From NCBI RefSeq assembly GCF_002854065.1, contig NZ_CP024147.1: DNA of 64,000 nucleotides; one strand, 5' to 3'. Origin of the DNA: Escherichia coli. Its GTDB lineage: Bacteria > Pseudomonadota > Gammaproteobacteria > Enterobacterales > Enterobacteriaceae. Shown in pieces: positions 54,770 through 58,998 of the stretch. The first letter of the stretch is position 1; every line of letters begins with the position of its first letter. The position numbers and the translations under genes are program-made. Under the pieces are notes generated by a model. It did not search any database, was not told where the DNA came from, and worked only from the letters and a program-made list of their open reading frames with translations.

Positions 54770-55615
54770 ATGTCCACGACATGGTTTGTAGGAGCCGACT
54801 GGCTCGCCGAACATATTGATGACCCGGAAATTCAGATTATCGATGCCCGCATGGCGTCGCCTGGACAGGAAGATCGTAACGTTGCTCAGGAGTATCTGAA
54901 TGGACATATTCCCGGCGCAGTGTTTTTTGATATCGAAGCGCTTTCTGATCACACTTCCCTGCTTCCGCACATGCTGCCGCGCCCGGAAACGTTCGCCGTG
55001 GCGATGCGTGAATTAGGCGTTAACCAGGATAAGCACCTGATTGTCTATGACGAAGGTAATCTTTTCTCAGCCCCACGAGCATGGTGGATGCTGCGCACCT
55101 TTGGTGTAGAGAAAGTGTCGATTCTGGGGGGTGGACTTGCAGGCTGGCAGCGCGATGATCTGTTGTTAGAAGAAGGTGCAGTAGAGCTGCCGGAAGGAGA
55201 GTTTAACGCCGCGTTTAATCCTGAAGCAGTGGTGAAAGTAACCGATGTGTTATTGGCAAGCCATGAAAATACGGCGCAAATTATTGATGCCCGCCCGGCT
55301 GCACGTTTTAACGCAGAAGTTGATGAACCTCGCCCAGGTTTACGTCGCGGACATATTCCCGGTGCATTGAACGTTCCGTGGACGGAACTGGTGCGCGAAG
55401 GCGAACTAAAAACGACCGATGAACTGGATGCGATATTTTTTGGTCGCGGCGTCAGCTATGACAAACCGATTATCGTCAGCTGCGGCTCTGGTGTAACAGC
55501 AGCCGTGGTTTTGTTGGCACTCGCGACGCTGGATGTGCCAAACGTGAAACTGTACGACGGCGCATGGAGTGAATGGGGCGCGCGGGCAGATTTACCGGTT
55601 GAGCCATTGAAATAA
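54770..55615 (+). CDS. sseA: 3-mercaptopyruvate sulfurtransferase SseA (tandem rhodanese domains)
   Basis: 281 aa from MSTTWFVGADWLAEH...; active-site CGSGVTA. Confidence 0.9.
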   Translation: MSTTWFVGADWLAEHIDDPEIQIIDARMASPGQEDRNVAQEYLNGHIPGAVFFDIEALSDHTSLLPHMLPRPETFAVAMRELGVNQDKHLIVYDEGNLFSAPRAWWMLRTFGVEKVSILGGGLAGWQRDDLLLEEGAVELPEGEFNAAFNPEAVVKVTDVLLASHENTAQIIDARPAARFNAEVDEPRPGLRRGHIPGALNVPWTELVREGELKTTDELDAIFFGRGVSYDKPIIVSCGSGVTAAVVLLALATLDVPNVKLYDGAWSEWGARADLPVEPLK

Positions 55616-55631
55616 GCTTTTTACAGGCAAT

Positions 55632-55660
55632 AAAAAACCGCCGAATTTGGCGGTTTTTTA
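55632..55660. terminator. Bidirectional Rho-independent terminator (sseA on + strand; candidate antisense sRNA on - strand)
   Basis: AAAAAA-CCGCC-gaattt-GGCGG-TTTTTT, with runs on both sides. Confidence 0.75.
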
Positions 55661-55731
55661 TTGCTGGTCTGGTTCGCGGCCTTTCCAGCAGGTTGACTTG
55701 TGTTGCCGGAGCAACGCAGGCACCCCACAGT
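55635..55731 (-). ncRNA. Candidate divergent antisense sRNA, copy 1 (RyfB/TimR-like)
   Basis: TTGACA -35 on the - strand (55761-55766) with a weak -10; predicted 5' end falls on a 16 nt core (55717-55732) whose complement matches the ryfA-like 5' region (55879-55894); bounded by the bidirectional terminator. Confidence 0.35.
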
Positions 55732-55812
55732 GTTGAAATACTCTCTTTTATGCCTGGCTGTGTCAAGATAATAAACAGAGTAATTATTCAAACATGAGAG
55801 TATTATTCTTAA

Positions 55813-56116
55813 TGGCCCTTTTCGCCGTCTCGCAAACGGGCGCTGGCTTTAGGAAAGGATGTTCCATGACCGTAAATACAGGCACCCCACAGTGCTTGCT
55901 ATCGCGGCAATATCGCCAGTGGTGCTGTCGTGATGCGGTCTTCGCATGGACCGCACAATGAAGATACGGTGCTTCTGTATCGTACTTATTGTTTCTGGTG
56001 CGCTGTTAACCGAGGTAAATAATAACCTGAGTCTCTCCGGCAACAATTTACTGGTGGTTAACAACCTTCAGAACAGCAGGTAAGCCCGAATGCCGCCCTT
56101 TGGGGCGGCATATTTA
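55813..56116 (+). ncRNA. ryfA: ryfA-like transcript, copy 1 (putative type I toxin mRNA)
   Basis: TATTAT -10-like box at 55801-55806; strong hairpin terminator GCCGCCC-ttt-GGGGCGGC plus T run at 56092-56116; span about 304 nt. Confidence 0.5.
55958..56083 (+). CDS. Small hydrophobic protein (41 aa, MKIRCFCIVLIVSGALLTEVNNN...), candidate type I toxin (TimP-like), copy 1
   Basis: ATG overlaps by ATGA the stop of an upstream 31-codon ORF (55866..55961) that has an ideal SD (AGGAAAGG, 7 nt spacing); N-terminal 17-residue hydrophobic segment; stop 8 nt before the terminator hairpin. Confidence 0.45.
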   Translation: MKIRCFCIVLIVSGALLTEVNNNLSLSGNNLLVVNNLQNSR

Positions 56117-56314
56117 GATTATCCGATTCTGTTTAAAGTCACGCAAAAAACCACCCCAGCGACGTTCATAGAATGGCGCAATATGTTCGATATTAAAATG
56201 ACCTGGCTTATTAGTCCGAATTCAGACAAATATAAACAAATCCCGCTCAATATTAAAAATACTAACCGGTAAAAGATATTACTTAAACATGTAAATTCAC
56301 TTTCTTTAAGCAAC

Positions 56315-56345
56315 AAAAAACCGCCAAAATCAGGCGGTTATTTGT
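56315..56345. terminator. Bidirectional hairpin terminator, copy 2 of the repeat unit
   Basis: AAAAAA-CCGCC-aaaatca-GGCGG-TTATTTGTT. Confidence 0.6.
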
Positions 56346-56414
56346 TGCCGGTTTGGTTCGCGGCCTCTCCAGCAGATTGACTTGTGTTGCATGAGCAACG
56401 CAGGTGCTTCACAG
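56318..56414 (-). ncRNA. Candidate divergent antisense sRNA, copy 2 (RyfB/TimR-like)
   Basis: Conserved TTGACA -35 on the - strand (56445-56450), AATATT -10-like box about 18 bp downstream; 5' core 56401-56415 matches 56560-56574 in the copy-2 ryfA-like 5' region. Confidence 0.35.
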
Positions 56415-56494
56415 CAGAGCAATATTCGCCAGCAACTCTCTTTTTGTCAAGCAAAAGAGAGTAATTATTGTTTATTTAGCGTATTATCGACACC

Positions 56495-56798
56495 GGCCCT
56501 TTCCGCCGTCTCGCAAACGGGCGCTGGCTTTAGGAAAGGATGTTCCGTGGCCGTAAATGCAGGTGTTTCACAGCGCTTGCTATCGCGGCAATATCGCCAG
56601 TGGTGCTGTCGTGATGCGGTCTTCGCATGGACCGCACAATGAAGATACGGTGCTTTTGTATCGTACTTATTGTTTCTGGTGCGCTGTTAACCGAGGTAAA
56701 TAATAACCTGAGTCTCTCCGGCAACAATTTACTGGTGGTTAACAACCTTCAGAACAGCAGGTAAGCCCGAATGCCGCCCTTTGGGGCGGCATATTTTA
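56495..56798 (+). ncRNA. ryfA: ryfA-like transcript, copy 2
   Basis: Same architecture as copy 1; terminator hairpin 56773-56790 with a T run overlapping the sseB stop codon. Confidence 0.5.
56639..56764 (+). CDS. Small hydrophobic protein (41 aa), candidate type I toxin, copy 2
   Basis: Identical protein to copy 1 (single synonymous difference TTC to TTT); preceded by a GTG-initiated 31-codon ORF (56547..56642) with the same SD and ATGA overlap. Confidence 0.45.
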   Translation: MKIRCFCIVLIVSGALLTEVNNNLSLSGNNLLVVNNLQNSR

Positions 56799-57572
56799 GA
56801 TTATCCGGTTCTGTTTAAAGTCACGCAAAAAACCACCCCAACGACGTTCATAGAATGGCGCAATATGTTCGGTAATAAAGTGGCTAATTCCTTTTTCCCC
56901 TTTTTTCACCTGACAAATATCGATTGGTTCATCGCCAGGTAATGTATCGGTCGCTACACTTCCCGCCGCCTGAATAATTTCTTCGATATCACCATCGGCT
57001 TCAATGCCAATAAGTAAATTAGGCTGTGCCTCTTCGTTCTCTTTAATTGAACATATAAAAGCACGCTTCACCGGCTTAATAGTTTTAAATAAGGTGGTGA
57101 GTGAATCAATCATTTGTGCTGGCGGCTCTGCGACTTCCGATAATATTAGCGATTCACCGCCTTCCAGTACTTCCTGGCTACTCAGCGGATTCCCTTCTTC
57201 ACCAATCAACAAACTGATTTCACGCGGCATAAATTCTTTACCGGTTGGCAGTTTGGCATTAAGGAAGAGCGTTTCGCCAAGGGTCATCTCAAACAATGTG
57301 CGAACGGGCATTACTACAAATGCCTGTTCGTCTTCAACCGCCTGTTGAAGTGCTTCTAACGAGGTAAAAAAAGGAATGACGCTGGTGCCGTCTTCTTTTT
57401 CCCAATGCTGTAAATCAAGCGCACTATCTTCAACCACAGCCTCGCCCTGCGCCGCCGTACCAGGCACCCAGACGGTGGATCCCAGTAGAGTACGGAAAAA
57501 GGCCGGGCGGTGCGCCGGTTCGGTTGCTGCTTTTTCCAGCAGGTCTTCAAGTTCGTTTTTTGTTTCGGACAT
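56796..57572 (-). CDS. sseB: Protein SseB (enhancer of serine sensitivity)
   Basis: 258 aa from MSETKNELEDL... Confidence 0.9.
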   Translation of the reverse strand: MSETKNELEDLLEKAATEPAHRPAFFRTLLGSTVWVPGTAAQGEAVVEDSALDLQHWEKEDGTSVIPFFTSLEALQQAVEDEQAFVVMPVRTLFEMTLGETLFLNAKLPTGKEFMPREISLLIGEEGNPLSSQEVLEGGESLILSEVAEPPAQMIDSLTTLFKTIKPVKRAFICSIKENEEAQPNLLIGIEADGDIEEIIQAAGSVATDTLPGDEPIDICQVKKGEKGISHFITEHIAPFYERRWGGFLRDFKQNRII

Positions 57573-57608
57573 AAGAACCACAATTCATTCAACGTTCGGG
57601 GCACAAGT

Positions 57609-57707
<99 letters not shown>

Positions 57708-57714
57708 TATTAGT

Positions 57715-58998
57715 TTACGCCGTTAACAGATTAGCAATCGTGCGCACACCAAGTCCCGTAGCACCCGCAGACCACTGTTCAACCGGCGCTTTACGGTAAG
57801 TCGCCGAGCAGTCGATATGCAGCCAGCCTTGCTGATAGTTCTCAACAAAGTGCGACAGGAAGCCCGCTGCCGTGCTCGCGCCTGCCGGATACGCCGCGCT
57901 TCCGGTATTGTTCAGTTCGGCAAAGTTAGACGGCAGCTGGCTGCGGTGGAATTCCGCCAGCGGCAGACGCCAGAATGGTTCGTTCTCTTGTGAGGCACTC
58001 GCCAGCAAACGACCGGCAAGCGCATCGTCAAAACTGAACAGCGCGTGATAATCATTACCCAGCGCAGTTTTCGCCGCCCCGGTGAGGGTCGCCGCATCAA
58101 TGATCATTTCCGGTTTCTGCGCACTGGCATCAATCAGACCATCGGCAAGCACCAGGCGCCCTTCGGCATCAGTGTTCATCACTTCAACTTTTTTACCGTT
58201 GCGATAGGTGATGATATCGCCCAGCTTAAACGCATTGCCGCTGATCAGGTTATCCGCACAGCAGAGGAACAGCTTCACGCGCTTGTTCAGTCCGCGCGTA
58301 ATGGCAAATGCCAGCGCCCCGGTAACCGTTGCCGCGCCGCCCATGTCCGACTTCATCGAGTCCATAAACGCAGTCTGTTTGATGCTGTAGCCGCCGGAGT
58401 CAAAAGTGATACCTTTACCTACCAGGCACGCGTACACTGGCGCTTCTTTATCGCCAGTTGGGTTGTAATCCAGCGCCAGCAATACCGGAGAACGTTCTGA
58501 ACCGCGTCCGACGGTGTGCAGCCCCATATAACCTTGCTCACGCAGATCCTCACCTTTGGTGATCCGATAAGTCACACGATCGCCTGCGACGTTGTTGATC
58601 AGATCAACAGCACGCTGTGCCAGTTGCGATGGCCCCAGCTCTTCCGCCGGTGCGTTGATGGTGTCACGCACCCAGTCGATGATCATCAGGCGGTTATCCA
58701 GTTCCTGCCGCTGGGCATCGTCCAGATCCGGCCACTCCACTTTACGCGTGCCTTTCGGGGCTTTGTAACCTTGCCAGAATGCCCAGCAGCGATCCACATC
58801 CCAGCCTTCACCGCTTAGCTGAACATGCTTGATGCCCAGACCGTCAATCTTGCGCGCCGCACGCTGGATCAGCCCCAGATCGTCTGCCCCGTTCAAATGC
58901 AGAGTAATGCCATCATTATTAATGCTGTAAGTTGCTTTTTCTCCCCAGCGCGCGTCGGCAGGTTGGGTAGAGAGGGTAATTTTCATCGCTTCTGTCAT
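57715..58998 (-). CDS. pepB: Peptidase B (M17 leucyl aminopeptidase family) PepB
   Basis: 427 aa; M17 signature NTDAEGRL. Confidence 0.95.

Follow-up and report, generated by a model that had tools for sequence, protein, structure and literature searches.

One GC-rich hairpin as a probable bidirectional terminator for the convergent timP (ryfA2) and sseB genes of Escherichia coli

The convergent genes timP (ryfA2) and sseB of Escherichia coli very probably end at an ordinary overlapping bidirectional terminator, built on one GC-rich hairpin that takes up the 31 nt separating their stop codons. The locus lies in a 64,000-nt stretch of contig NZ_CP024147.1 (hereafter "the window", whose numbering is used throughout unless K-12 coordinates are named). 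On the plus strand, the hairpin and the tail AUAUUUUA would terminate the timP toxin mRNA, an abundant transcript, in the canonical Rho-independent manner, and the same hairpin would also provide it with a stabilising, ProQ-type 3′ end. Owing to the shortness of this gap in Escherichia, the complement of the sseB TAA supplies the final U residues of the tail, and the timP RNA would end either on the sseB stop codon or just within it. On the minus strand, the sseB mRNA would pass through the same hairpin and end 3–6 nt beyond it, beside the timP stop, such that the two RNAs would be complementary over ~32–36 nt. Formation of the sseB end may involve hairpin-induced pausing or polymerase collision, or else trimming back to the hairpin. 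The end positions known from K-12 presumably apply to the two-copy strain as well, and the overlap probably has no dedicated regulatory role.

The gene order around the junction is yfhM, sseA, ryfA, sseB, and pepB. A 1401-bp query spanning positions 55560–56960 was 100% identical to E. coli EC1515, a urinary isolate from Taiwan, and the PGAP annotation was taken from that genome, where the identical locus reads sseA, timP, an sseB pseudogene fragment, a second timP, sseB, and pepB. The two ryfA copies, ryfA1 (55812–56116, plus strand, variable region CACCC) and ryfA2 (56493–56797, plus strand, variable region TGTTT), match Rfam RF00126 with 315.7 and 313.8 bits, respectively, for a gathering score of 80, and both are full length, covering model positions 1–296 of 296 with the 3′ terminator helix included. 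The CACCC and TGTTT variable regions are those of the ryfA1 and ryfA2 classes of Shigella dysenteriae (Fris 2017). Each copy is a timP mRNA with its own timP ORF on the plus strand, at 55958–56083 in copy 1 and at 56639–56764 in copy 2 (41 aa, stop TAA at 56762–56764), and each ORF matches the TimP model NCBIfam NF040796 with 77.7 bits vs a cutoff of 45. The reading originally made from the sequence alone had spoken of a "ryfA-like" and "toxin-like" transcript, and it was right on both counts, as the TimP match identifies ryfA as the timP toxin mRNA. Opposite copy 2, the sseB coding sequence (56796–57572, minus strand, 258 aa) was annotated by PGAP on the identical locus and matches the NCBIfam equivalog NF008624 for SseB (enhanced serine sensitivity protein B) over residues 1–257 of 258 with 481.6 bits vs a cutoff of 295; pepB adjoins it. 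A REP-like palindromic element is also present at 57607–57720 in the sseB–pepB intergenic region, with a sub-threshold naRNA4 match (40.3 bits vs a gathering score of 59.5). The sub-threshold Rfam matches to AgrB, Leu_leader, mir-944, and naRNA4 were taken as chance or as terminator or REP resemblance.

[quoted passage not shown] TimR1/RyfB1 is placed at approximately 55629–55732 (minus strand), with a palindromic terminator at 55627–55664 that it has in common with sseA, and TimR2/RyfB2 at approximately 56313–56415 (minus strand), with a terminator hairpin at 56319–56339 and a K-12 3′ end, 2653679 (−), that converts to position 56313. The complementarity is specific to each pair, with 16 of 16 positions matching between TimR1 (55717–55732) and the timP1 5′UTR (55879–55894), 15 of 16 between TimR2 (56400–56415) and the timP2 5′UTR (56559–56574), and no more than 7 nt across copies, which indicates that each duplicated toxin has diverged in step with its antisense partner, in agreement with the reported specificity of RyfB1 for RyfA1 in Shigella. 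The locus does not differ in kind from the known ryfA/timP–timR system (RF00126; Andresen 2020; Fris 2017), with which it shares a full-length ryfA, TimP, the location between sseA and sseB, and one divergent TimR/RyfB partner per copy matched to the 5′UTR variable region; the 3′ overlap with sseB is not discussed in the portions of this literature that were covered.

Two further elements of the locus touch on these antisense genes. An Rfam "IS128 sRNA" match (56147–56357, plus strand, 227 bits) is composed of part of the sseB fragment, a 109-nt spacer, and the TimR2 terminator. This region is better explained as the antisense of TimR2 than as a separate sRNA, because the strong K-12 Term-seq 3′ end at 2653679 (−), i.e., window position 56313, with ~107,000 reads, lies on the strand opposite to the "IS128 sRNA". 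The sseA/TimR1 terminator (55627–55664) is a near-perfect palindrome with 19-nt arms that are 95% complementary and with U-tracts on both strands, and the K-12 ends of sseA (2653384, plus strand) and timR (2653353, minus strand) convert to positions 55660 and 55629. With this palindrome, the locus has a further overlapping bidirectional terminator.

The hairpin shared by timP and sseB occupies positions 56771–56792, with a 9-bp stem (ATGCCGCCC/GGGCGGCAT) and the loop TTTG, and was recovered by folding (centroid energy of −19.1 kcal/mol), by a terminator scan, and as part of the Rfam ryfA consensus structure. The sequence-only reading had described a GC hairpin at 56773–56790 followed by a sequence ending in the complement of the sseB stop, and this description is confirmed on the bases, with the full stem extending to 56771–56792. 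Specifically, GCCGCCCTTTGGGGCGGC (56773–56790) is the 7-bp core of the 9-bp stem (7 GC pairs), ATATTTTA follows directly after this GC core at 56791–56798, and the TTA at 56796–56798 is the complement of the TAA stop codon of the sseB ORF (56796–57572, minus strand). The U-rich tail of the timP/ryfA2 terminator, ATTTTA, spans 56793–56798 on the plus strand, its last two U residues and final A being given by the complement of the sseB stop codon, and its RNA 3′ end is predicted at 56796–56800 from the K-12 Term-seq and TRS data. The spacer between the timP and sseB stops (56765–56795) contains the hairpin and short flanks only and measures 31 nt, compared to 30 nt in K-12.

The hairpin is not a chance structure, because terminator-like sites in the region number 11 in the consensus scan vs 2.8 ± 1.7 in shuffles, and because 14 distinct sequences from four genera preserve its pairing in 92.9% of cells. 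An assignment to REP or another repeat element was rejected, the hairpin being part of the ryfA covariance model and associated with a mapped 3′ end. In the consensus scan, it was terminator-like on the plus strand only. Read in the direction of timP, it has the features of a canonical intrinsic (Rho-independent) terminator, namely a GC-rich 9-bp stem followed by the tail ATTTTAGA, and the K-12 timP 3′ ends sit 4–8 nt past the stem. Saturation mutagenesis of Salmonella timP by FASTBAC-Seq provides a functional counterpart, as loss-of-function mutations in the 3′UTR mostly break the terminator stem, and the stem-loop with its four-U tail is a predicted ProQ site on RyfA. Read in the direction of sseB, the tail is TTCGGGCTTA, the longest U-run is 2 (TRS table), and the consensus scan returned no minus-strand site, so that this strand does not carry a canonical intrinsic terminator. 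Because there is no U-tract on the sseB side, what looks like an sseB "terminator" may in reality be a processing stop.

Published 3′-end maps place the ends of both transcripts at this hairpin. All of these data are from K-12 rather than from the two-copy strain, and K-12 positions were converted to the window by exact sequence matching. For timP, the Term-seq data of Adams 2021 (eLife, supplementary file 1) include a curated 3′ end at 2654157 on the plus strand in all three growth conditions (7630 reads in LB at OD 0.4 and 3922 in a second condition), which is classified as internal to ryfA and antisense to sseB. From the sequence given in this table around each end (50 nt before and 10 nt after it), 2654157 could be identified as the first T of TTA, which makes it the final base of the sseB stop. 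The TRS 2023 data likewise include a primary timP/ryfA terminus, with peaks at 2654153–2654164, a dominant position of 2654160 or 2654161, and a signal of 0.99–1.0. Taken together, the timP/ryfA ends (2654157–2654161, plus strand) correspond to window positions 56796–56800. For sseB, TRS 2023 reports a primary minus-strand terminus with peaks at 2654124–2654135, a dominant position of 2654127 or 2654130, signals of 0.59 and 0.95 (the 0.59 entry having rank 1563), adjusted p values down to 6e-18, and a 3′UTR of 31 nt; an sseB 3′ end at this junction is not listed in the Adams 2021 table. Converted to the window, the predicted sseB mRNA 3′ end lies at 56765–56768 on the minus strand (K-12 2654127–2654130), 3–6 nt past the stem on the first bases after the timP stop, with the tail UUCGGGCUUA and no U-tract.

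The K-12 ends thus fall on opposite sides of the hairpin, and the two RNAs therefore overlap by ~32–36 nt, a length that includes the whole hairpin. The sequence-only reading had proposed 3′-end mapping as a check of its claim that the two convergent transcripts overlap or share a terminator, and the public K-12 Term-seq and TRS maps show this overlap, with sseB not ending short of it. That part of the claim is therefore upheld by the K-12 ends at 2654157–2654161 (+) and 2654127–2654130 (−), and the feature is specific neither to the second ryfA copy nor to this strain, being found in copy 1 and in single-copy strains as well.

A second, weaker sseB terminus in the TRS 2023 data bears on how the sseB end is formed. 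This "alternative primary" terminus at 2653971 (signal of 0.61) corresponds to window position 56609 and coincides with a hairpin internal to timP (56607–56626 in minus-strand reading), where we place a predicted minor read-through end of sseB; some sseB transcription therefore runs antisense through the whole timP ORF. One can thus conceive of a hairpin that terminates timP only, an explanation we regard as a serious although less probable one. Transcription of sseB would then continue antisense into timP and be stopped by Rho, at the internal hairpin around 56609, or at the TimR2 terminator, after which 3′-to-5′ exonucleases would trim the RNA back to 56765–56768. The lack of a U-tract on the sseB strand, where U-runs reach 2 at most in the TRS data, would be expected under such a scheme, as would the second sseB terminus, which indicates that read-through occurs. 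The stem also starts 3 nt past the sseB stop, and a terminating ribosome would presumably cover its 5′ arm and hinder folding of the hairpin behind the polymerase. Rho-terminated transcripts are reportedly trimmed back to stable hairpins, a point in favor of this route.

Other data fit it less well. The bicyclomycin table of Adams 2021 (supplementary file 2) lists no Rho-dependent region at 2653.6–2654.1 kb, although an absence from this table is still compatible with Rho activity. Within the same TRS sheet, the sseB end at the hairpin is far better supported statistically than the read-through end (adjusted p of 6e-18 vs 3e-4), although their signals are about equal (0.59 vs 0.61). In addition, Rho-independent, hairpin-only bidirectional terminators are reported as widespread between convergent E. 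coli genes. We continue to favor a single hairpin serving both genes as the more probable explanation.

Overlapping bidirectional terminators of this type were reportedly described between convergent pairs involving hundreds of E. coli genes by SEnd-seq (Ju 2019), and hairpin-dependent pausing combined with polymerase collision has been proposed as the mechanism for the class (Wang et al. 2022, e.g., for ynaJ–uspE). The K-12 orthologue of the timP/sseB junction has the structural properties of this class, i.e., a convergent pair, mapped ends flanking one hairpin, and overlapping RNAs, and the junction sequence is conserved in the window. The likeness extends to a single hairpin located in the overlap with the ends on its opposite sides, an overlap about as long as the hairpin, and one side without a canonical U-tract; the difference is that the timP side resembles a normal intrinsic terminator, with a hairpin and four U residues. 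The layout is also frequent in the Term-seq data, since the first ~78 rows of the Adams 2021 table contain 20 "primary" 3′ ends, 9 of which are also antisense to a convergent gene, with mog/satP, hpt/can, and speD/yacL as examples from these sampled rows. In K-12, mog/satP and hpt/can have facing 3′ ends ~25–30 nt apart around one hairpin and are mutually antisense, as seen here; being different genes, these pairs serve as controls for the commonness of the layout only. The shared hairpin and the overlap are an ordinary feature of E. coli, already mapped in public datasets.

Within the window, the junction occurs twice as part of a larger duplication. Two repeat units, at 55627–56200 and 56310–56882, are 87.5% identical and separated by a 109-nt spacer, and each comprises a TimR/RyfB antisense gene, ryfA/timP with its terminator, and the last 87 nt of sseB. 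The copy-1 hairpin (56090–56111) is identical to that of copy 2 and lies beside an sseB 3′ fragment (56114–56200, minus strand), a 94% direct repeat of 56795–56882 that PGAP annotates as a pseudogene and that moved with the copy-1 terminator; the tail in this copy is one T shorter (ATTTA). A restriction of the overlap to the duplicated copy 2 was considered and rejected, as single-copy genomes carry the same junction. Across the hairpin, the ATATTTTAG tail, and the stop, an ST131 genome matches copy 2, and the junction of a K-12-like genome differs from that of the window by one loop base, the hairpin in the window having one extra loop base.

Of 5426 complete E. coli genomes, 5425 carry a ryfA match, with 5600 matching places in total, and at most ~3% of these genomes therefore carry an extra ryfA copy. 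The ryfA match overlapped the sseB annotation in 11 of the 12 rows sampled. The arrangement of the locus is variable in other respects. Compared to window positions 55829–56183, the K-12 locus, as seen in a K-12-like genome, looks like a two-copy locus from which ~355 bp have been lost, a segment that would hold the bulk of ryfA1, its terminator, and the greater part of the sseB fragment. K-12 keeps two TimR-like genes, both with mapped 3′ ends, and the ST131 genome has a clean single unit. With the two-copy, K-12-like, and ST131 layouts, at least three architectures of the locus thus coexist in E. coli. The T-run at the junction (56113–56116 in copy 1 vs 56794–56798 in copy 2) varies as well, being TTTA in copy 1 and in E. 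albertii, TTTTA in copy 2, K-12, and ST131, and TTTTTA in E. coli SCPM-O-B-8794. ProQ binding is said to require four U residues, and the copy-1 tail has fewer.

We extended the comparison to sseB in Enterobacteriaceae and Erwinia, with 80 loci in total. At 73 of these 80 loci, the sseB stop is followed by a hairpin of −10 kcal/mol or lower, with a median gap of ~4 nt and 62 within 12 nt, and a T-rich tail on the sseB side is present at only 14 loci of the same set. ryfA was detected beside sseB by blastn only in Escherichia, some Citrobacter, Salmonella arizonae and diarizonae, and Superficieibacter. Where it is the neighbor of sseB in Citrobacter, Salmonella, and Superficieibacter, the two genes are again arranged stop-to-stop around a GCCGCCC/GGGCGGC core, and the U-tract, TTTCCTTTAC or TTTCTTTTCT, finishes just before the sseB stop. 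The Escherichia tail is ~5 nt shorter than in those genera, which brings the stop codon inside the U-tract. Salmonella and Citrobacter ryfA thus differ from the locus studied here in having a longer U-tract (UUUCCUUUAC) that halts just short of the sseB stop, whereas here the stop is included. Covariation provided a weak test, as the core is invariant, a single outer pair flips between UA and AU, and the observed score is equalled or exceeded in 35 of 500 shuffles.

Among the 80 loci, blastn found no ryfA beside sseB in Enterobacter, Klebsiella, and others, a result that may reflect sensitivity limits or another location of the gene. For the same reasons, limited blastn sensitivity or a different location, we did not accept a loss of ryfA in Enterobacter and Klebsiella. 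Enterobacter, Leclercia, and Lelliottia have an equally close hairpin after sseB, which sseB shares there with an unrelated convergent ORF. Given this 80-locus comparison, a tight convergent hairpin is the rule after sseB, whatever the partner gene.

Three individual loci in this set stand out. In Escherichia whittamii, a repeat insertion of ~174 nt with an ERIC-like motif (AAGTAAGTGACTGGGGTGAGCG; locus L006, 3256–3433) parts the sseB stop from the ryfA 3′ end, and this species represents a natural case of a broken sseB/ryfA overlap. No ryfA was found by blastn beside sseB in Superficieibacter sp. 1612_C1 (L049) or Citrobacter werkmanii (L007). The former has kept a GCCGCCC/GGGCGG hairpin by the sseB stop (L049, 3275–3310), whereas only half of it is left in L007; these loci hint that the hairpin can persist beside sseB even without ryfA.

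These comparisons also inform whether the overlap could itself be regulatory, which we consider improbable. Strong timP transcription might lower sseB through polymerase collision, or sseB 3′ ends and read-through RNA might pair with the timP mRNA and affect its stability or translation, adding a cis-antisense layer beside TimR. Such effects would draw on the 32–36-nt transcript overlap and on the fraction of sseB RNA that is antisense across the whole timP ORF to ~56609. They would also fit with the expression of timP far above that of sseB, as seen in their TRS 3′-end ranks (143 vs 1563) and in the presence of only the timP end in Adams 2021, and with the close packing of the two genes, conserved in four genera. 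However, overlap with a convergent gene is seen for about half of the primary 3′ ends among the Term-seq rows sampled, and therefore has no predictive value by itself. The packing is not maintained in Escherichia whittamii either, where the inserted repeat puts ~174 nt between sseB and ryfA, and an equally close sseB hairpin stands beside an unrelated convergent ORF in Enterobacter-type genomes. In copy 1, the same terminator works without a full sseB opposite. In the six papers naming both ryfA and sseB, sseB is absent from every title and abstract, and in those of them covered here it figures only as the flanking gene. Overall, nothing singles out the timP/sseB pair for regulation, and the read-through terminus keeps interference formally possible.

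A more elaborate version of this idea would treat sseB read-through as a signal rather than noise. A terminating ribosome 3 nt from the hairpin would decide whether the latter folds, translation of sseB would thereby set the level of antisense RNA across the timP ORF to ~56609, this RNA would act as a second cis-encoded repressor of timP besides TimR, and heavy timP transcription would in turn cap sseB. We consider this scenario very unlikely. An ordinary bidirectional terminator remains our preferred interpretation of the junction.

Beyond confirming the overlap in public tables, this interpretation has little wider significance, and its main consequences are for the timP/ryfA tail and for genetic work at the locus. 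The sseB stop codon partly dictates the four-U tail that serves in termination and in predicted ProQ binding, and copy 1 has one U fewer in this tail. When a ryfA/timP deletion extends through the annotated 3′ end, sseB loses the only hairpin that follows it, and the deletion reaches into its stop codon. Because such a deletion takes away the only 3′ hairpin of sseB, ryfA knockout phenotypes may include sseB effects, and the published ones, which concern stress resistance, virulence, and biofilm formation, could in principle include consequences of an altered sseB mRNA 3′ end.
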